NCBI RefSeq assembly: GCF_032191835.1
Contig: NC_083224.1
Span: 134,912,001-134,976,000, forward strand
Length of the DNA: 64,000 nt
Source: Heteronotia binoei
Taxonomy: Eukaryota
Reading direction: 5' to 3'
Positions within the stretch are counted from its first letter, which is position 1. Every line of letters begins with the position of its first letter. Shown here in pieces: positions 7,319-64,000 of this stretch. The position numbers were made by a program, and so were the translations under genes. The notes beneath the pieces are model-generated. The model was not told the origin of the DNA, ran no database searches, and worked only from the letters and a program-made list of their open reading frames with translations.

Positions 7319-7786
7319 TCGATACTTTGCTCCACTTTTCTACCTCTGTTATAGAGGCGAGTTTCAAATTCAGTTTGTATTATGGCATGGAATTCTATTG
7401 TTCAAAGAAAGAAAGTTGAAAATTATTCTAGATGAAAGCAAGCCCTTGAGATCACCTATTGTATACCAGGACACTGGCTCATGAAAATTGCTTTATATTA
7501 ATTCCCATGCAGAATGGTATATGAAAACAGAAAGAATGACATACATTACTTGAAGCTTCTTGGAAGAATGATAGGATAAACTTGCAAGGAAGAAAAGAAA
7601 TGAAAAAAGTTAACATGAGTCCTTTAAGTAAGGTGCAGAGACAGGTATCAATTTTTGAACTTCTCACAGCAAACTTATTGGCAAATGAAATCCTAGTTTT
7701 ATCTTGATACCAAGGATATATACTAGGGCTTCAGAAAGAAATTGATACTGAGGCTTCAAAAAGAAATGTTAAGGGACACTGATATG

Positions 7787-8060
7787 ATCTGTCTTTCATA
7801 TGTTTACCAGCGGCCTGAACCAGCTGCATGCATTCCCTCACACAGTTTCCACCTTCAAAGTCTGGCTGCAGTGGTTTTGTGGGTACCTGTTCTCCATCCA
7901 AGTAGAGAGCAAAGAAATTGATGTCATAATGCTTAAAGTTAAATGGGTTTTTATTATGGGCCCCACTGAAGGACTCATCCACCAGTCCGATAATCAGCAG
8001 CTTGGGTAATTGCCCCCAAAACAAATTCTCTTGGTTGCTGACACGACTTCCTGCAGGGAT
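7787..8060 (-). pseudogene. Polinton major capsid protein (double jelly-roll, PY) internal fragment
   Basis: IPAGSRVSNQENLFWGQLPKLLIIGLVDESFSGAHNKNPFNFKHYDINFFALYLDGEQVPTKPLQPDF...MQLVQAAGKHMKDR, recognised as Polinton MCP motifs; truncated at both ends. Confidence 0.9.
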
Positions 8061-8061
8061 G

Positions 8062-8519
8062 CAGAGTGTTGAACCTCCCCGTGATGTCTGCTGTAAAGTT
8101 TATATTTTGGATTGCCTCATCTGGGGGTGCCCCTAAAAGGTGAGCCAATTCTTTAGAAGCTGAAAAGGTATAAGTAGGTGGTGCTTTTAGACCGATCTTT
8201 CTATACCATGCTCAGTTTAGGGGGGGAAATGTGACTGTGTGGTGTTCAGTTTCACCACCAGGTCAGGCATGTTTTTATAATAGCCTCTACTGAATCTGTA
8301 TTTCCACTGTTTCTCCTTGGTAATGATTACAATAGTGGAATCTTTGGTGAGGGTCTTCCAGCTGTGAGGATACTGTATTTCCACAAGCCCAACCTCCCAG
8401 GCCCCTGGAAGGTTCAATGACCATGCTAGATGGGTGGTAAAGGCCACTGTAGTGTTCTGTGGAAAAACACTTGCACATGAGTTGCTAGGAAGGGTGATAA
8501 AGAAGCCGCTGTCAGCCAT
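8062..8519 (-). pseudogene. Polinton minor capsid protein (penton, PX), N-terminal part
   Basis: MADSGFFITLPSNSCASVFPQNT...WEVGLVEIQYPHSW is the characteristic Polinton penton N-terminus; continues after a frameshift to TADITGRFNTL; ATG lies 7 nt after the integrase stop. Confidence 0.9.
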
Positions 8520-8525
8520 TTTTTT

Positions 8526-9602
8526 CTATATAGGATCACAGAGTTGAGAAGCAGGAACCCAGATGTTAAATTTATCAGGCCACCCTAACCACTTCACTAG
8601 ATGTTGTTTTCTCTTCCCCCTGCCTTTGGAAGCTAAGATTTTCTCAATTCGATACACTCTGTCTGCTCTACTCTTAACTTTTTGTAGCTCTTCAGGATAG
8701 AATGAGCTTATGACAGGGTCTCCGGCATAATCTTTGCACAAGTACACATTTGATTCTACAAATGACCTGTTCTACTATAAATAATTCATCTGTGAAGCTC
8801 CGTTCATATCCTTTTACAAAAACTCCTTTGCTTTTAGATACATGCACATGATCTCCTTTTCTAATGAAAGGCCCCAACACAGTCTCCGTAAAGCGTTTTC
8901 CACACAGTATGAGCATTGGTGTGGTTTACATCCACAGGACGGGCTCTGATTGTCCTGTGAAAGCTGTGGTTATAACTTTTAATAAGCAGCAGCACGTCAA
9001 TATATCTGAAGGTGTTGTTAGCAGTAAAATACCTCCACATTTTTGTTCTTAATGTTCGATTGAAGCGCTCCACAATAGCTGCTTTGACTTCATTATGGGT
9101 GTAAAAGTGGTGGATTCCATGGTGCTTTAACACGCTGCTTACAGACTGGTTTAGAAACTCTTTACCTGCATCAGTCTGAAGCTTGGCAGATATTCTACCT
9201 TGTTTGAAAATTTCCTTAAGGGCTTTCGACACCCTCTCCCCTATCTTGTCTTTTAAGGCCAAAACCCAGGCATATTTAGAAAATATGACAACCACTGTTA
9301 AAATGTACTTGTAGCCATCATTATTTTTGGAAAATTTCTGCATAACAACAAAATCCACCTGCCACTGGGCATCAAGACCATAAACCATGGTCTTGTTTCT
9401 CTTAAAGCGGATGCGGAGTTGGTTATGCAATGTGTAAGCATCTTGCTCTGAAAGCCAGTTAGTAACATGATTTTGAGTGAGAGCTTTACACTGCTTTTTG
9501 GCTGCCTGGAAGAGAGGCCTCTCCCCGCCAAAGTTCCCTGCTTCTCTGGGAACTATAATACATGTGCTTTAAGATCTCCTCTTCATCAATTGCCCCCATC
9601 AT
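8526..9602 (-). pseudogene. Polinton retroviral-like (rve) integrase with C-terminal chromodomain, frameshifted
   Basis: N-terminal ILKHMYYS..GNFGG..WLSEQDAYTLH; DDE residues in WQVD, LQTDAGKEF and IVERFNRTL; KGDHVHVSKSKGVFVKGYE; chromodomain YRIEKIL...HLVKWLGWPDKFNIWVP; at least 3 frameshifts. Confidence 0.95.
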
Positions 9603-9665
9603 CGCTCACTTAACTCAGAAATGATAACACAAGGTTATAAAACAAATGTTTTTATTGTAACAGAA

Positions 9666-10341
9666 CTACCTCTTCCTCTTATTCATTTTATTCTTCTTTT
9701 TCCTGTCGCACTGGGGAACTTTGGTACAGAAACACGACACACACAATAGATTCACGTCAACAGGGTTACCAATGTGAAGATTACTGAAAGCCTGGATAAA
9801 ATTCTCATCAAGCTGTCAAAATAAAATAAAAAGAACAGCTCAGTGAAAAAGTCCATCACCCTTCTTCATTATACACCCATTCACAAACACTGCTTTACCT
9901 GATTACCTGTGAGTTTGACACAGCGTTCACTTGTTCCATGGATTCATCTAAAACCTCTTCTGGAGTTTCTTCATCATCTTCAAACTGCTCAGCAGGGTCC
10001 CGGTAAATACACCACAGCGGGTTGGCCATTCCCAATTCCATCTCATCTTCAGGGCGGCTGGAAAGTGCCGTCTACACATCATGCTGGCTTTCCCATGCAG
10101 GCATCATTGTGTTTTCTGTTCTGCCATTTACCTTTGGAGTTGCAGAGTGCTTGGGCATTTCCGCAGCCTCATTGGAGACCAGGTAAGTACAGCGCATAGG
10201 GACAACTCTGCTAAAGTACATAGTAGATGCAGAAGGGATGTCAAATACCAGCTGCCTGGCAGGAGCGCCAATGTTGTTGAAACTAGCCCTCCCCAATGGC
10301 GGTGGTGTGGTGAATATCTGGGACCTGTCCAGAGTTTCCAT
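9666..10341 (-). CDS. Putative spliced orphan gene of the Polinton: exon 1 from ATG 10341 to donor 10132 or 9907; exon 2 9812-9666
   Basis: Kozak AACATGG; donors AAG|GTAAAT (10131) and CAG|GTAATC (9906), both phase 0; acceptor ttctttttattttattttgacAG (9813); open exon 2 LDENF...CVSCFCTKVPQCDRKKKNKMNKRKR*; AATAAA at 9656-9651. The long isoform has one in-frame TAG at 10074-10072. Splicing is inferred. Confidence 0.6.
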
Positions 10342-10589
10342 GTTCTCAGCAAGAGCCTGCACACGTGTGTTTAAGCACAAATGGATTATTTCCTAAAATA
10401 ATCTGGTGGGGGTGGTGGGCCTCAGTCCATTTGCTATTGGCCAGGGCATGTTGTTAGAGGGGTCACATGGACCTACTCACGCCTTCTCAGTGGCAGCCCC
10501 ATATTCCAGGGTGGGGTGCCACAGGTGGAAGTTCAATGACGCTGCACTGGGTGACGCTGGAGAAGGGGGCTACACATGTGATTTTCGGC

Positions 10590-10965
10590 CTGCTCAATTA
10601 ATATGCAGGGTTGCTACGTCACAGCGGGGTGGACATAGGTGCTGATTGGCCTGGCTATGCCACATGGTGTGAGTCAGTAAGGTCATTTCCTGGAGGAGCT
10701 GCTTAATTAATTAAATATGCGGGGTAGCTACTTCACAGCAGGGTGGACGTAGACGCTGATTGGCCTGGCTAGGCCACGTGGTGTGAGTTAGTAAAGTCAT
10801 TTCCTGGAGGAGGTGCTTAATTAATTAAATATGCGGGGTAGCTATGTCATGGTGGAGCATAGATGGTGATTGGCAGGGCTAGGTCACGTGGGGGGTGGGG
10901 CTAGACAGGACACCTCCTGGTGGGAGGCGTTTAATTAAATATGAGGGGTGCCTACATCATGGTGG
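10590..10965. repeat. Subterminal tandem array, ~114-bp unit x ~3.3, enhancer/promoter-like
   Basis: Anchor ATATGC/A at 10601, 10715, 10829 and 10939; units carry CCAAT (minus strand), CAC(G/A)TG and TAATTAATTAA. Confidence 0.85.
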
Positions 10966-11031
10966 TGCCCCCAAAGTAGGTCACTTCTGTCCTCCATTTG
11001 CTGTAGTTTCCAGTCACGTGACTCTGGGGTC

Positions 11032-11242
11032 GGGGGAGGGACGGTGACTCAGTGGTAGAGCATCTGATTGGGAAGCAGAAGGTCCCAGGTTCAATCCCTG
11101 GCATCTCCAAAAAAGGGTCCAGGCAAATAGGTGTGAAAAACCTCAGCTTGAGACCCTAGAGAGCCGCTGCCAGTCTGAGAAGACAATACTGACTTTGACC
11201 AAAGGTCTGATTCAGTATAAGGCAGCTTCATATGTTCATATG
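11032..11242 (+). mobile_element. tRNA-derived SINE (Squam2/AnolisSINE2-like) inserted in the Polinton terminal region
   Basis: A-box TGACTCAGTGG, B-box GGTTCAATCCC, body shared with 7123-7318, short (CATATGTT)-like tail. Confidence 0.85.
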
Positions 11243-11394
11243 ACCCTGATGACGCAATTTCTGGTGACGTCACCGGATGTGACGTCACTGGCCACGTCCC
11301 CTTCATTAATTATGCACGGGGTTGACAGTTTCCGGTGACATCACCAGAAGTGACGCCCCTTCATTAATAATGCGTGGGGGGACTATTTACTACT
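11243..11394 (-). promoter_or_regulatory. Polinton terminal (TIR) segment: putative protein-primed origin with CRE/ETS sites
   Basis: TGACGTCA at 11265-11272 and 11280-11287; CCGGATGTGACGTCAC; two related repeats ending CCCCTTCATTAAT(T/A)ATGC; terminal TACTACT. Confidence 0.75.
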
Positions 11395-15665: not shown

Positions 15666-17400
15666 TCTCTCTCTCTCTCGGCTTGACTTCGCGAACGAAG
15701 ATTTAGGAAGGGTGCAGTAGTCCACGTCTGCTGCAGGCTCGCTGGTGGCTGACAAGACCAATGCGGGACAGGCAGATCCGGCCACAGTGGCTGCAGGGAA
15801 AAGTTTGATTTGGGGTTGATGCTGTAGCAGTGCGATTCTTCCTCAATCTCCTTTTGTCCTTAAGACCAGCTATGCGTGCGTTCTCAAAGGAAGAGACAGC
15901 ATGGTGGATGGTGTGCCTCCATGCTTTGCGATCTGAGGCTAGGTCAGACCACTGGTGATGGTTGATGCGACAGGTGCCAAGGGATTTCTTCAAGGAGTCC
16001 TTGTACCTCTTCTTTGGTGCCCCTCTATTTCGATGGCCAGTGGAAAGTTCGCCATACAGAGCAACCTTGGGAAGGCGGTGGTTTTCCATCCTAGAAATAT
16101 GCCCTGCCCAGCGCAGCTGCGTCTTCAACAGCAGGGCTTCGATGCTTGTAACCTCCGCCCTCTTGAGGACTTCAGTGTTGGTCACAAAGTCACTCCAGTG
16201 GATGTTGAGGATGGTGCGAAGGCAGCGCTGATGAAAGCGCTCAAGGAGTCGCAGGTGATGACGGTATAAAACCCACGATTCGGAGCCGTAGATGAGGGTT
16301 GTCATCACAAACGCTTTGTAAACATTGATCTTTGTGCCTTTTTTCAGATGCTTGTTGCTCCACACTCTTTTGTGCAGTCGGCCAAATGCACGATTTGCCT
16401 TTGCCAGTCTGTTGTCAATCTCCTTGTCGATCTTGGCATCTGAGGAGATGATGCACCCCAGGTAGCTGAACTGCTGGACTGTCTTCAGAACTGATTCACC
16501 CACAGTGATGCAGGGAGGGTGATAATCTTCCTGGGGTGCAGGCTGGTGGAGAACTTCTGTCTTCTTCAGACTAACTTCTAGGCCGAATAGCTTGGCAGCC
16601 TCTGCAAAGCAGGACGTCATATGCTGCAGAGCTGATACCGAGTGGGAGACGAGTGCAGCATCATCAGCAAATAGTAGCTCTCGGATGAGTTTTTCCATTG
16701 TCTTGGAGTGAGCCTTTAGTCGCCTCAGGTTGAACAGGCTGCCATCAGTGCGATAGCGGATGTAGACACCATCGTCATCATCTAGATCTACTGCGGCTCT
16801 TTGAAGCATCATGCTAAAGAAGATCGTAAAGAGAGTTGGCGCAAGAACGCAGCCTTGCTTTACACCTGTGCCTATTGGGAAGGGCTCCGAGAGGTCGTTG
16901 CAGTGTCTGACTTGGCCTCACTGGTCTTCATGTAGCTGGATGATCATGCTGAGGAACCTTGGGGGACATCCTAAACGTTCCAAGATTTGCCATAGGCCTT
17001 TCCTGCTAACGGTATCGAAAGCTTTGGTAAGGTCGACAAAAGTCACATATAGACCCTTGTTCTGTTCCCTGCATTTCTCTTGGAGCTGCCTGAGAACAAA
17101 TACCATGTCGGTGGTGCTCCTGTTAGCTCTGAAGCCGCACTGGCTCTCTGGGAGGAGTTCTTCTGCAATGGTGGGCACCAGTCTGTTCAGGAGTATTCTG
17201 GCAAGGATTTTGCCTGCGATGGAGAGCAGGGTTATCCCCCGGTAGTTGGAGCAGTCTGACTTTTCTCCTTTGTTCTTGTATAGAGTGATGATGATTGCAT
17301 CGCGAAAGTCCTGTGGTAGTTTGCCTTGTTCCCAGCAGGTGACAAGTACTTTGTGAAGTGTGCTATGTAGTACTGTGCCCCCATGCTTCCAGATCTCTGG
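15666..17400 (-). mobile_element. RTE-clade LINE, 5'-truncated copy 1
   Basis: RT with LFADD, C-terminal CxxC...H..C finger, (GA)n tail; one CGA>TGA stop near 16919; 10-bp TSD TCTGGCATGC (15656-15665 and 17396-17405). Confidence 0.95.
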
Positions 17401-39892: not shown

Positions 39893-40028
39893 CAGGGGTG
39901 GCCAACGGTAGCTCTCCAGATGTTTTTTGCCTACAACTCTCATCAGCCCCAGCCATTGGTCATGCTGGCTGGGGCTGATGGGAGTTGTAGGCAAAAAACA
40001 TCTGGAGAGCTACCGTTGGCCTCCCCTG
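39893..40028. mobile_element. Palindromic hAT MITE (136 bp)
   Basis: Near-complete self-complementarity; perfect 8-bp TSD ACTTAGAA (39885-39892, 40029-40036). Confidence 0.9.
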
Positions 40029-40055: not shown

Positions 40056-40980
40056 TTTGGAGTCTGTTAAAATGTTACTTATAGGCAAAACCCCACAGGT
40101 TACAGCCTTAGTGTGAAATTTCTTGCAACTGCTTGTAAAATTCTGCCATGTAAAATTCATAACATTTTATGTAGTTCAGATGAATCTTAATTTTAACATT
40201 TTGCAATAATGTAGTAATTTTGTATTACCTAACTGTATAGCTTGATTAGCTAATTGTCTGGGTTTGGAGTCTGTTAAAATGTTACTTATAGGAGAAAACC
40301 TACAGGTTACAATCCTTAGAGTGAAATTTCTTATAGCTGTTTGTAAAACTTGCCAGAAAGTTTTATGTATTTCAGATTAATCTTAACAATTTTAACATTT
40401 TAAAATAATTTAGTAATTTTGCATTACCTGACTGTATAATTTGATTGGGAGAGAAGTCACTACAGGAACAACAATATATACACAACACAATCGTTATAGT
40501 GACAAATTACTATGTAATAAAGTGCATATACAAAATACAAAAACAATTCATGAACATTCTTCCAAAGAGGAGTCCCGATGTGCAGGCTGCCGACTTTAAA
40601 AGTCCTGCTTTGATTGTCACTTGAGTTGCCATTGGGCTTGAGCTGCCATTGAGCATGATGCCGAATTGAAAACTTGTCTGGAGAATTCATATTCCCGTAT
40701 CATTATATATGTAAAAAATACTTAGCAGTGAGGAACGCATTGGGAAGAGCATCAGTAAGCCTCATTGAACGGGGATGTCTTTGTTGAGATTTAATGGAGC
40801 ACCCTTTGCGGGAAGAGTGACAATCGAAGCAGGACTTTTAAAGTCGGCAGCCTGGACACCAGGACTCCTCTTTGGAAGAATTTTCATTAATTGTTTTTGT
40901 ATTTTGTATATGCACTTTTTTACATAGTAATTTGTCACTATAACGATTGCATTGTGTATATATTGTATAATTTGATTAGC
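40056..40980. repeat. ~207-bp tandem duplication followed by a TSD-flanked module with ~151-bp inverted arms
   Basis: Units start at 40056 and 40263; arms 40471-40621 / 40816-40966; TGTATAATTTGATT at 40433-40446 and 40964-40977. Confidence 0.8.
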
Positions 40981-43253: not shown

Positions 43254-43931
43254 CAGGTAAGACTAGTCATTTGTTACTGCCTGGTAGGGCTGCCATAGAA
43301 ACCAAACTAACATGCCTGCTTACTCCCAGAGACACACCTCCACTACAGTCCCTCTGCTCTACAAGTTGCTCTCTCCAAACCGATAATTGTCAACTTTCCC
43401 CACTTCCTTCAAGCTGTTTGAATGTTGCTGTGGTCTTCATATCAGCTCAGCCATTCACACTGTATTGGTTGTTTGATAGCTAGGGGACAGAAAGTCTCAT
43501 ATGCAGCACCTCCATGATTAACTTTTCAAATCATGTGGACAGACAAACTGAAAAGCTTGGAAGCAACCTTATAGTTCTTTGGATGCTGACATGTATTTAT
43601 ATCCTGATCTTTCTACAATGACACAGTAGTGACTTGTGACATTGCTGTGAGATTTATAAAATTAGGTAACAGTGGTTTGGTTCAAACATAACAGCAAACT
43701 GTGATTTCCCTCAAGCTAGTAGAGTACTTCCACTTTCTTTGCTTTAATCCTGATTTGGAATCCTGGTTAGCTAGGCTTGTACATATTAGCAAATTATGAT
43801 GTGCACAAAAAGTGAAAATAACTCATTAGACTGCTATCTGTGAGGGAATGAGAAAGGGAAAAGTGAAGATGGGAATGCATGAATCTGAAATTTCCAAAGT
43901 TCATTCATAATGCATTCAAAGCATTCATAAT

Positions 43932-44218
43932 GGGTGTTTTCGCACTCACCTTCAGCCGGCGCCGCGACCCTCTTGACGACGGAGGATCTGTGCTGATTTC
44001 CCACACGAAGCGCTGGAGCAACCAGAAGAGCCGCCAATTTCCGGCGCGAAGCCCGCTCAAGCGTTTTCCTGCTTCTTGGCGATTTACGTTTGAGCGGGCT
44101 TCGCGCCGGAAATTGGCGGCTCTTCTGGTTGCTCCAGCGCTTCGTGTGGGAAATCAGCACAGATCCTCCGTCGTCAAGAGGGTCGCGGCGCCGGCTGAAG
44201 GTGAGTGCGAAAACACCC
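43932..44218. mobile_element. Young foldback MITE, probably PIF/Harbinger
   Basis: Perfect 129-bp inverted arms (43932-44060 / 44090-44218), 29-bp spacer, GGG...CCC ends, 3-bp TSD AAT. Confidence 0.9.
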
Positions 44219-45070
44219 AATGCAAGTTTGTTGCTTTGTCTGGATTGAGCCAGCTACGTTGCCCAAGATCAGCTAGTGCAGTGCTTTGGGGTACCACTGA
44301 ATTGCAAGCTGATGATATCAGAGTCATGTGACAAGAAGAGTGACAGCCCACGTTATGGCTTCATTAGTGCCAGGACCATGGGCAGCAGTCCAAAATAACA
44401 GTGAATACAAAACATAACTCAGGTACCAGGCAATTAGAAGTATTAGATAAAAGAGAGAACAGCAAGCAACTTAGACAATAAATGACTTTGCTTTTGATTT
44501 ATTAAGGATGTGTGTTGTTTAGAATGCTCTTTAAATGAACTCCGAAGCTCATTTCTATGATGTATTATTTATTATGCAATACCTCAGCTAATGGCCTAAT
44601 CCTCTGTTTCAGTGTACTGCTCAGAGAATATATAGTGTTGGATGGAAGCACTTATTTGATAGCTGCTATCAATGGAACTGGTCAATGCTTTTTTCCCCTG
44701 TTGTGTAGTGTGCCTGTTCTTCTATAGTACTTGGTTGGGTCTAAAACTGGTTCTAAAGTAGATCAATTACGGTAATTGGGGCACAAAATCTCAAGAATAT
44801 ACATAAATTAAACACAACTATGGGTGGAACTGCAAGAGAAACTGTGTTTGAGGAAAACCCAAATGATTAGGATTTATACTGCAAATAGAAGAGAAACCTG
44901 TATCTGTGAGATTCCCTGAGACAACTACAGAGGTTAATACAAACTATTCAAAGTGTAGTTAATATAATAACACAAACATCCAAGTAAAATTGAGCTGGAG
45001 ACCAGTTATTTCACCCTTTTACAGCCACTTCATCAACTATACTGAATTTTGATGTTGAATCCAAACTGAA

Positions 45071-60740: not shown

Positions 60741-63433
60741 TCTCTCTCTCTCGGCTTGGCTTCGCGAACGAAGATTTAAGAAGGGTGCAATAGTCCACGT
60801 TTGCTGCAGGCTCGCTGGTGGCTGACAAGACCAATGTGGGACAGGCAGGTCCGGCCACAGCGGCTGCAGGGAAAAGTCTGATTTAGGGTTGGTCCTGTAG
60901 CAGTGCGATTCTTCCTCAATCTCCTTTTGTCCTCAAGACCAGCTATGCGTGCGTTCTCAAAGGAAGAGACAGCCTGGTGGATGATGTGCCTCCATGCTTT
61001 GCGATCTGAGGCTAGGTCAGACCACTGGTGATGGTTGATGTGACAGGTGCTAAGGGATTTCTTCAAGGAGTCCTTGTACCTCTTCTTTGGTGCCCCTCTA
61101 TTTCGATGGCCGGTGGAGAGTTCGCCATACAGGGCAATCTTGGGAAGGCGGTGGTTTTCCATCCTAGAAATATGCCCTGCCCAGCGCAGCTGCGTCTTCA
61201 ACAGCAGTGCCTCGATGCTGGTAACCTCCGCCCTCTTGAGGACTTCAGTGTTGGTCACAAAGTCACTCCAGTGGATGTTGAGGATGGTGCGAAGGCAGCG
61301 CTGATGAAAGCGCTCAAGGAGTCGCAGGTGATGACGGTATAAAACCCATGATTCGGAGCCGTAGATGAGGGTTGTCATCACAACCGCTTTGTAAACATTG
61401 ATCTTTGTGCCTTTTTTCAGATGCTTGTTGCTCCACACTCTTTTGTGCAGTTGGCCAAAGGCACGGTTTGCCTTTGCCAGCCTGTTGTCAATCTCCTTGT
61501 CGATCTTGGCATCTGAGGAGATGATGCACCCCAGGTAGCTGAACTGCTGGACTGTCTTCAGAACTGATTCACCCACAGTGATGCAGGGAGGGTGATAATC
61601 TTCCTGGGGTGCAGGCTGGTGGAGAACTTCTGTCTTCTTCAGACTAACTTCTAGGCCGAATAGCTTGGCAGCCTCTGCAAAGCAGGACGTCATATGCTGC
61701 AGAGCTGATGCCGAGTGGGAGACAAGTGCAGCATCATCAGCAAACAGTAGCTCTCGGATGAGTTTTTCCATTGTCTTGGAGTGTGCCTTTAGTCGCCTCA
61801 GGTTGAACAGGCTGCCATCGGTGCGATAGCGGATGTATACACCATCGTCATCATCTAGATCTACTGCGGCTCTTTGAAGCATCATGCTAAAGAAGATCGT
61901 AAAGAGAGTTGGCGCGAGAACGCAGCCTTGCTTTACACCTGTGCCTATTGGGAAGGGCTCCGAGAGGTCGTTGCAGTGTCTGACTTGGCCTCGCTGGTCT
62001 TCGTGTAGCTGGATGATCAAGCTGAGGAACCTTGGGGGACATCCTAAACGTTCCAAGATTTGCCACAGGCCTTTCCTGCTAACGGTATCGAAAGCTTTGG
62101 TAAGGTCGACAAAAGTCACATACAGAGCCTTGTTCTGTTCCCTGCATTTCTCTTGGAGCTGCCTGAGAACAAATACCATGTCAGTGGTGCTCCTGTTAGC
62201 TCTGAAGCCGCACTGGCTCTCTGGGAGGAGTTCTTCTGCAATGGTGGGCACCAGTCTGTTCAGGAGTATTCTGGCAAGGATTTTGCCTGCGATGGAGAGC
62301 AGGGTTATCCCCCGGTAGTTGGAGCAGTCTGACTTTTCCCCTTTGTTCTTGTATAGGGTGATGATGATTGCATCGCGAAAGTCCTGTGGTAATTTGCCTT
62401 GTTCCCAGCAGGTGACAAGTACTTTGTGGAGTGAGCTATGTAGTACTGTGCCCCCATGCTTCCAGATCTCTGGTGGAATTCCATCAACTCCCGCTGCCTT
62501 GCCACTTTTCAGTTGCTTGATGGCTTTAACAGTCTCTTCTAGGGTGGGGATCTCATCCAACTCTGTTTTCACCGGTTGAAGTGGGGTGAGGTGGATTGCT
62601 GAATCTTGAACTACGCGGTTGGCACTGAAGAGAACCTGAAAATACTCCGACCACCGGTTCAGTATGGATGCCTTGTCTGTGAGGAGCACTTGGCCGTCTG
62701 CACTATGCAAGGGACTCTGAGCCTGATATGATGGACCATATACTGCCTTCAGGGCTTCGTAGAACCCTCTTAAATCACCAGTGTCTGCACACAGCTGGGT
62801 TCTCTCTGCAAGCTTGGTCCACCACTCGTTCTGAATGTCTCGAAGCTTGCGCTGGAGGTTGCTACATGCAGCACGAAAGGTTGCTTTTTTCCCAGGACAG
62901 GAGGGCTGAGCAAGATGTGCTTGGTAGGCAGATCTCTTTTTTGCCAGTAATTCTTGGATCTCTTGATTGTTCTCATCAAACCAGTCCTTGTTCTTCCTTG
63001 TGGAGAACCCGAGGACTTCTTCAGAGATCTGCAGGACGGTAGTTTTTAGGTGTTCCCAGAGTGCTTCTGGAGAAGGGTCTGTGGGGCAACTGGGGTCCTC
63101 AATTCTTGACTGGAGTTTTGCCTGGAAGGCAGCTTTAACTTCGGCTGACTGGAGGCTGCCAACCTGAAACTTCCTCCGAGGGATACCTCCTCTCCTGGGT
63201 GTGGGTTTAAAGTGAAGACGGAGATTGCAGCGTACAAGACGATGATCCGTATGACATTCTGCGCTGGGCATTACTCGGGTGTGTAAGACATCTCGAAGGT
63301 CTCTCTGGCGCACCAGAATGTAGTCGATAAGGTTCCAATGCTTGGACCGTGGGTGCATCCAGGTTGTCTTCAGACTGTTCTTCTGCTGGAAGATAGTGTT
63401 GGTGATGGTGAGCTGGTGCTCCGTGCAGAATTC
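60741..63433 (-). mobile_element. RTE-clade LINE copy 2, 5'-truncated in the APE domain
   Basis: (GA)n tail, 23-nt 3' UTR, closely similar to copy 1; inserted in L1 at TCTC microhomology. Confidence 0.95.
60776..63432 (-). CDS. RTE LINE ORF: APE C-terminal part, reverse transcriptase, C-terminal zinc finger; open from the truncation point
   Basis: 860-aa ORF extended upstream by an open EFCTEHQLTITNT...TTW; IDYILV/TDH (APE), DLTKAFDTV, QGCVLAP, LFADD, CSRCGRTCLSHIGLVSHQRAC. Confidence 0.93.
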
Positions 63434-64000
63434 TCTGGTATACAGATAAAGGTAGTAAGCATTTTACTAATCACTTGATCCGGAAGGCAATATTTGATGT
63501 TTGATTAAAGATAAAAAACAAGATATATAGTAAGATGCCCAGATGGGTTTCCCCAATAGAAGCATCTACAAAACCTCAACTATGGGAATTCATGAATATT
63601 GTAACATATCAGGAGTTGTTGGATGAGGATGATAAATTAAGAAAGAGGGATGATTTAGAACAGAGAGGAATAAAAATAGATTGGTGGCTAAATTTGCAGA
63701 TTATGGCTAAATTTAATAAAGATAAAGTATGTGGGTTTACTAAAGGGAATTTTGATTTCGATAAAATATTGCTGGCAAAGGAGGATAAAACGATCAGAAA
63801 AGTATACAATTATTTAATGCAAATAAAATTAGAAGACGAAAAGGTAAAAGAAGTGATGATTAAATGGTCACAGAATTTGGGGAAGACCATTAACTTAGAA
63901 CAATGGCTGCAATTGTGGAAAAATAATTATAATATCATCAAGCCAGTTAACTACAGGGAAAACTTTTTCAAAATGTTCCATAGATGGTATATTACGCCAG

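Follow-up and report, generated by a model that had tools for sequence, protein, structure and literature searches.

The 64,000-nt stretch of Heteronotia binoei DNA analysed here (the window) carries, beside an integrase gene, what is probably the decayed copy of a genuine reptile Maverick accessory gene with two exons, expressed and acting by the mechanism proposed below. Its anatomy, its presence in the family before the copies decayed, the occurrence of its splice junction in gene models of other species and its position in the terminal repeat were observed directly. What is new is that promoter, ATG and 17 codons lie inside the repeat, and that introns occur in genes at both ends of the element and in two other families.

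Layout of the gene and of its element

Re-checking of the minus strand found every coordinate in the initial annotation to be correct (Table 1). The start codon, ATG at 10341 (minus strand), stands in the context GAGAACATGG, with CCAAT and CACCC boxes upstream at 10440 and 10414, as had been described. The frame is open for 210 nt (70 aa) to donor 1 (AAG/GTAAAT, first intron base 10131, phase 0), and exon 1 of the long form runs on to donor 2 (CAG/GTAATC, first intron base 9906). The acceptor AG (9814-9813) follows a U-rich tract. Unspliced reading past donor 2 gives Q-V-I-R-stop. Two codons ahead of the acceptor the exon 2 frame is closed by a stop, and no Met occurs among its first 41 residues; exon 2 is therefore readable solely by splicing, and the statement that ORF calling misses the gene is upheld. 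A GT at 9898 was rejected as a donor, since it is in phase 2 and incompatible with exon 2. The AATAAA (9656-9651) lies, as annotated, in the gap of 63 nt between the exon 2 stop and the integrase ATG at 9602. Neither exon belongs to a Pfam family at E 1, which argues against a core Polinton gene read in another frame. The premature stop in exon 1 (10074-10072) reflects decay of the window copy after insertion. Frameshifts at a TG repeat in exon 2 (window 9730-9745; L042, L045-L049, L051) are probably due to slippage after insertion.

Table 1. Features of the window copy, of its element and of related terminal genes (window positions unless a locus is named)
Feature	Position	Strand	Remarks
Maverick terminal inverted repeat	10290..11394	-	~1.1 kb including inserted repeat
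AGTAGT end motif	11389..11394	-	as described in the available part of PMC8097293
Two TGACGTCA sites near terminus	11265..11287	-	
Inserted repeat	11033..11240	.	absent from sibling terminal repeats; 96% match elsewhere
Tandem promoter units, 110-114 nt	10593..10968	-	with CCAAT, CACGTG, TAATTAA motifs
Proximal CCAAT box	10436..10440	-	
Exon 1, long form	9907..10341	-	435 nt, 145 codons to donor 2, phase 0
RxLxF motif	10243..10257	-	54/62 copies
Candidate alternative donor 1	10126..10134	-	phase 0, would give 319-nt intron
Premature stop in window copy	10072..10074	-	stop at that codon in 2/62 copies
Intron	9813..9906	-	94 nt, GT...AG, phase 0
Exon 2	9666..9812	-	48 aa + stop TAG at 9668-9666
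F-x3-F-x2-L-x-I, class 1a export-signal pattern	9771..9812	-	54/62 copies, 8/8 integrase-side-type models
Cysteine cluster C-x2-C-x-C-x5-C	9708..9743	-	CxxC in 28/35 in-frame copies
Basic NLS-like tail	9669..9704	-	gecko only; acidic tail in turtles
AATAAA polyadenylation signal	9651..9656	-	present in 37/40 copies
Integrase with chromodomain	8526..9602	-	frameshifted here; PF00665 E 4e-13, PF00385 E 6e-07
Capsid module remnant	7786..8520	-	by blastn to longer siblings; internal deletion ~8064
Sister gene, polymerase end	L086:4087-5200; L094/L098, L095-L100, L120-L132	+ in L086	three phase-0 exons
Second family, five-exon gene before integrase	L061 1981-3618; L062-L080	reverse in L061	integrase 55-63% identical
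Third, young family, two-exon terminal gene	L113:2401-3297		90-nt phase-0 intron, TATA-like element

The element belongs to the vertebrate Mavericks/Polintons (adintoviruses). It begins with AGTAGT at 11394 and ends truncated at ~7786; both the (AGT)2 ends and the terminal inverted repeats that mark Mavericks were found, and the 6-bp target site duplication was exact in 2 of the 5 sibling pairs for which both ends could be located (11 tried). A protein-primed B-family polymerase (PF03175) is present in sibling L086 and missing from the truncated window copy. Names of capsid-module genes were inferred from the gene order in the available part of PMC8097293, and the remnants of that module in the window gave no Pfam match. 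Elsewhere in the window, two long minus-strand ORFs (15668-16917, 404 aa; 60741-63463, 895 aa) have a 300-nt repeat in common (95%) and are probably copies of a putative retroelement. Near-perfect inverted repeats occur at 43931-44219 (134 nt), 40471-40966 (151 nt) and 39893-40028 (63 nt).

An inverted copy of the stretch from 11394 to ~10290 stands at the opposite end of siblings L086, L088, L090 and L094, and within one element the left and right ends are 92-94% alike to ~50 nt past the ATG. The terminal repeat holds the promoter, the ATG and the first ~17 codons of the gene. The earlier description of the gene as adjoining the terminus is right as to nearness; its promoter and start are actually inside the terminal inverted repeat. 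Sibling alignments break off at 11240 and resume at 11031, on either side of the inserted repeat. The two TGACGTCA sites are presumably CRE/ATF-like. No TATA box was found in the promoter region of the gene. We propose that a TATA-less RNA polymerase II promoter, made up of the CCAAT-containing repeats, fires inward from the terminal inverted repeat. As promoter and ATG are inside the repeat, the genes on the integrase side and at the polymerase end would be switched on together.

Sibling copies, foreign gene models and the splice junction

Copies of the gene are numerous in the H. binoei genome. In a DNA search the best 40 of 271 candidates were places at 87-100% identity, and exon 2 used as a protein query gave 121 matches among 124 candidates. 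Of 68 aligned loci, 6 with low cover or identity were set aside. The remaining 62 copies have the ATG in 51 cases, the GT of donor 1 in 57, that of donor 2 in 58, the AG in 56 and the terminal stop codon in 55, and their intron is 94 nt long in 48. The splice sites, whose conservation the initial annotation proposed to test, are present in most copies, and a stop at 10074-10072, a codon that it proposed to check for sense in other copies, occurs in only two. The commonest exon 1 length is 450 nt (26 of 62), so the window copy, with 435 nt, has suffered an in-frame loss of 15 nt. In the first 40 copies the long form was unbroken in 12 and the short form in 18. The layout predates the decay of the copies. 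Likeness among siblings that are ~90% identical reflects descent, not selection; variants common to several copies (58/64 loci) were too few and gave no selection signal, synonymous against non-synonymous, in any exon frame.

The same junction occurs in other species. A search of 1.84 billion representative proteins with exon 2 returned two matches, both at the C-terminus of ~200-aa proteins: Gekko kuhli KAL8189897.1 (P0001) and Trachemys XP_034642578.1 (P0002). An exon-1 homologue (34% identity, E 7e-19) is also present in P0001; it ends ESQ and continues LDEDF, exactly the donor-2 junction (Q/L). Three further G. kuhli models (P0003, P0030, P0031) have this junction, and the turtle models P0002, P0004 and P0005 show Q/L at the same place with the same type of exon 2. 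In P0011 and P0015, one side of this boundary is occupied by unrelated sequence. A profile search found 15 proteins among 1831 candidates, all from geckos or turtles. Identity over exon 2 is 35/48 residues to P0030 and 18/34 to turtle P0004/P0005. The motif that opens the downstream exon was present in 86 of 126 proteins, following Q in 77, many of them close relatives and not independent. Exon 1 alone gave no match among 18 candidates and no usable Atlas hit, and exon 2 found no relative in the viral contigs searched. The records from other species are gene models, assigned to Mavericks only by homology; four turtle models (P0011, P0015, P0018, P0027) join Maverick exons to host-like sequence or bear a host gene name, possibly through exonisation or annotation error.

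Recurrence of the junction between donor 2 and the acceptor in other species argues that it exceeds chance, and the long form with the 94-nt intron is the conserved one. These comparisons bear out the earlier description of a squamate Maverick accessory gene that is spliced. Both the gene and its splicing are very likely real, and we are confident that the RNA is made and spliced.

It is very unlikely that the product is instead the unspliced 153-aa ORF of exon 1 and that the database junctions reflect a habit of gene predictors. Read on through donor 2, exon 1 does meet a stop after three more codons, and the Mauremys model P0012 is unspliced; its ending, Q-V-N-E-stop, is also what read-through of a GT donor would give, as in the window copy, and to that extent speaks for a spliced gene. 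L053 and L105, the two decayed copies of divergent type that span donor 2, keep the acceptor but lack the donor GT; they differ from one another at the donor-2 base, and their families yielded no members beyond L102 and L105. A splice joint (10132>9812 or 9907>9812, the junctions that the initial annotation proposed to seek) was found in none of three RNA assemblies (X1-X3, all of a single study, with 92 contigs from sibling copies); each of the three runs has a contig that spans the intron unspliced. These contigs show neither strand nor level and may be host pre-mRNA or DNA; for total-RNA contigs of scattered decayed copies an unspliced look is expected, and splicing is neither proven nor excluded by them. 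Against the unspliced reading, exon 2, which has no start codon of its own, is the best-conserved part of the gene (53% identical to turtles), and canonical phase-0 introns are found in three unrelated terminal genes of this genome. Moreover, five RefSeq X1/X2 pairs, all of the sister gene described below, differ at the junction alone, two of them by the loss of eight residues, the effect expected of a donor lying 24 nt further upstream, and three by the loss of one Q; RefSeq isoform variants are normally based on transcript alignments. Still less credible is the view that the intron is explained by capture of part of a host gene, or by domestication of a copy by the host. Host genes typically contain introns, and P0011, P0015 and P0018 are chimeric with host exons, but there are more than 100 dispersed matches in the genome, those inspected lying beside an integrase or a terminus; the window copy is broken and has no Pfam family, and the homologues are all uncharacterised gecko or turtle models with no single-copy host gene among them.

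For the spliced gene, the initial annotation had gone further and proposed an E1A-like switch, with two donors and one acceptor yielding a regulated pair, a short product of 118 aa, taken to be intact, and a long one (~198 aa in our reading). This is doubtful. The GT of donor 1 is in phase 0 and is kept in 57 of the 62 copies, as well as in the divergent L102 and in L105, the latter lacking donor 2. The turtle sister gene offers a precedent, since two of its RefSeq pairs use donors 24 nt apart with a common acceptor, and both alternative donors encode V-N-G/R-K/R. Donor 1 is, however, near chance: a phase-0 site with at least 7/9 consensus matches arises in 0.29-0.30 of codon shuffles, and most siblings, with GAG, have 7/9; the window copy, with AAG, has 8/9, a score reached in 0.03-0.04. 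Its intron would be 319 nt long, whereas the seven other introns read measure 78-117 nt. The Val encoded at donor 1 is replaced in 3 of 4 G. kuhli models (E-E-N for E-V-N, in an uncertain alignment), donor 1 is missing from L053, and the short form appears in no retrieved protein model and no RNA joint. The short 118-aa isoform is not supported as the main product, the long form being the conserved one, and additional use of donor 1 seems rather unlikely.

Terminal genes at the polymerase end and in other families

In sibling elements the far terminal repeat carries the same ATG, and there it opens a different gene, which lies upstream of the B-family polymerase. After removal of one duplicate place and one unaligned locus from 22 rows, 20 sister-gene rows remained, in which the four splice sites were intact in 19, 18, 19 and 20; the middle exon was a multiple of three in all 20 and the first intron measured 96-117 nt. 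RefSeq model P0036 shows the two junctions that we had read; it is too close to this family to represent a separate lineage. The last exon contains a C-x2-C-x10-H-x-C motif, and the model of this zinc-motif domain is helical (pLDDT 71.6), with no BFVD or PDB match at E 0.001 (best Z 5.6). The gene is homologous to turtle P0009 and, at E 0.001, to 58 proteins; an Atlas search with P0009 came back blank. An identical tandem duplicate of the polymerase-end gene lies ~6.2 kb from the other copy (L094, L098/L099; G000:C2:106096222, 106102465). The turtle terminal genes P0005 and P0007 are identical at 76 of 94 positions in exon 1 and at 14 of 35 after the junction, and both keep CFCS at the same spacing, a pattern that suggests duplication through the terminal repeat.

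Spliced terminal genes were also read in two other Maverick families of this genome. In the second family the gene before the integrase has introns of 84, 78, 83 and 85 nt, all with GTAAGT donors and in phase 0, and an AATAAA precedes the integrase. Its last donor GT is present in 19/19 relatives and the AG in 18/19. This family is younger than that of the window copy, and its five-exon gene is assembled from repeated exon modules with CCxxC motifs (hhalign 89-97% from exon to exon). The middle modules are missing in several members, and I-x-C-x-E ends exon 2. Homology of our exon 2 to these exons was considered and rejected, as hhalign gave probabilities of at most 4%; the second-family gene is accordingly a positional analogue only. 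The third family comprises ~30 near-identical matches and has a relative annotated in G. kuhli (P0053). Its exon 1 includes KRLF and TP/SP motifs, together with a motif that we take to be KEN-box-like. Short phase-0 introns in the terminal genes of all three families make these a common trait.

Under the proposed mechanism, the transcript from the integrase-side promoter would be spliced at donor 2 across the 94-nt phase-0 intron and polyadenylated just ahead of the integrase, to yield a largely disordered protein of ~200 aa, while the same promoter and start cassette would drive the different spliced gene at the polymerase end. The protein would be phosphorylated by cyclin-CDK (through TPxR, and RxLxF in geckos), and exon 2 would bind the exporter CRM1, tuning the cell cycle or nuclear transport for replication of the element.

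Protein features, possible function and comparison with known systems

Exon 1 is acidic and predicted to be disordered. The structure model of an intact G. kuhli homologue, P0030, is disordered (pLDDT 49.5) apart from short helices; the one helix predicted in exon 2 (118-125) lies at its start. TPxR occurs near the N-terminus in 33 of 62 copies, is lost in the window copy, and takes the form TPVR in 7 of 8 integrase-side-type models from gecko to turtle. RxLxF reads RRLLF in 4/4 G. kuhli models and is absent from the three turtle integrase-side models. We take TPVR/TPAR to be a CDK site and RxLxF a cyclin-docking-like motif. The start of exon 2 has the class 1a hydrophobic spacing (x3, x2, x1) within a disordered region, a pattern that arises in 0.19 of shuffles per exon; export-signal patterns have high false-positive rates (PMC6488578). 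The turtle counterpart of the cysteine cluster is CxSCFC. An Rb-binding reading of LWCIY was rejected. The initial annotation had considered the protein nuclear. The basic tail on which this could rest is kept in the other gecko and is acidic in turtles, and the best-conserved part fits an export pattern instead.

From its sequence the protein is probably a disordered, motif-based host regulator. It may be phosphorylated by cyclin-CDK and bind CRM1 through exon 2, tuning the cell cycle or nuclear transport, a tentative assignment. As to role, our leading candidate, held with less than even confidence, is a regulator linked to the cell cycle that shuttles or binds CRM1, and that is made first, along with the sister gene product, from the two ends of the element. 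The main functional rival is a cytoplasmic role, in which the protein would be associated with membrane or virion, its cysteines palmitoylated beside the helix and basic tail, or would form a zinc-bridged dimer. The four cysteines and the amphipathic helix are the most conserved part, and an Rb-binding motif is absent; against such a role, the P0030 model has neither a transmembrane nor a folded domain, the gene lies outside the capsid module and under the terminal promoter, the basic tail is not kept in turtles, and the CDK-type site is kept from gecko to turtle. We regard this rival as unlikely, and prefer the regulator.

More broadly, and again with less than even confidence, reptile Mavericks may have an overlooked adenovirus-like spliced early programme, with a duplicated cassette, two regulators, alternative donors, exon duplication in other families and cyclin-CDK/CRM1 motifs. 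In such a programme the two turtle regulators have nearly the whole of exon 1 in common and part only after the junction. Vertebrate Mavericks have been argued to be viruses, and how their genes are switched on and how they act on the host has so far been unexplained; the spliced terminal-repeat genes are the first concrete candidates for early regulators. Since Maverick genes are described as intronless, ORF-only annotation misses the terminal genes. The defined splice junction offers a way to tell true Maverick transcription from host read-through in RNA data that already exist, and dozens of turtle and gecko gene models filed as uncharacterised can now be assigned to Mavericks.

Barreat and Katzourakis (2021; PMC8097293), in the part available, describe vertebrate Mavericks as having (AGT)2 ends, terminal inverted repeats, a 6-bp target duplication and two inward-facing modules, with accessory ORFs in two regions, between the terminus and either the integrase or the polymerase. 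That part of the paper states that genes of intact elements showed no introns, and it leaves the accessory genes uncharacterised; its supplement has no mention of accessory, intron or splicing terms. Our elements agree in ends, repeats, target duplication, modules and accessory ORF position as described there, and differ in having spliced genes at both termini, with a common repeat-encoded promoter and start. The intronless state was described for core genes; the terminal accessory genes contain GT-AG introns. We found no report of spliced Maverick genes in the openly accessible papers searched, and there is no mention of them in PMC10748475 and PMC5803895 or in the available parts of bioRxiv 2024.03.25.586562 and PMC10812802. 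The same genes and junctions are already present in automatic gecko and turtle annotation (P0001-P0005, P0009, P0036), where they are listed as uncharacterised proteins of the host or as possible contamination, and not as Maverick genes.

Oncoids (Starrett et al. 2021, PMC8502044, in the available part) are defined by LxCxE, CK2, CR1 and paired CxxC motifs and usually lie upstream of PolB; splicing of Oncoid genes is unmentioned in that part, and a Terrapene reference annotation of these ORFs may exist. Like the proposed host regulators described there, our gene is terminal, motif-defined and acidic, with CK2-type sites and cysteines. Unlike them, it is without LxCxE, CR1 or a CxxC pair, lies upstream of the integrase and is spliced; the sister gene does lie upstream of PolB. 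LxCxE occurred in 1 of 31 exon-1 copies, 0 of 35 exon-2 copies and 0 of 9 database models, and CR1, (DEN)(LIMV)xx(LM)(FY), in 0/31, 0/35 and 1/9. The CK2 acceptor (ST)xx(DE), a very common pattern, was present in 31/31 exon-1 copies; CxxC was single in 28 of 35 exon-2 copies and double in none. The gene is not a textbook Oncoid. The parvovirus MVM NS2 export signal is listed as class 1a (PMC6488578, Table 1; also PMC6232958, in the parts available). NS2, too, is a small viral protein with the same hydrophobic spacing after acidic residues, a likeness of pattern only.

The genome plan parallels that of adenovirus, with early units at both ends. Adenovirus E1A is a spliced gene whose promoter is terminal in a linear DNA genome replicated by protein priming and whose product is a disordered hub; spliced units stand at both ends of that genome, with E4 opposite E1A. 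Both systems place spliced units under terminal promoters at both ends, and both have a disordered protein (here by prediction). The initial annotation claimed no homology to E1A, and we agree: there is no sequence similarity and no Pfam family at E 1, and CR1, CR2 and the four-cysteine CR3 are absent. The two-donor switch modelled on E1A is doubtful for this gene, donor 1 being near chance and mixed in relatives, with no joint in the three RNA assemblies. The layout is like that of an adenovirus terminal early unit, but the gene is not E1A. It differs further from the adenovirus plan in that the start codon is inside the repeat, so that both ends have a common N-terminus.
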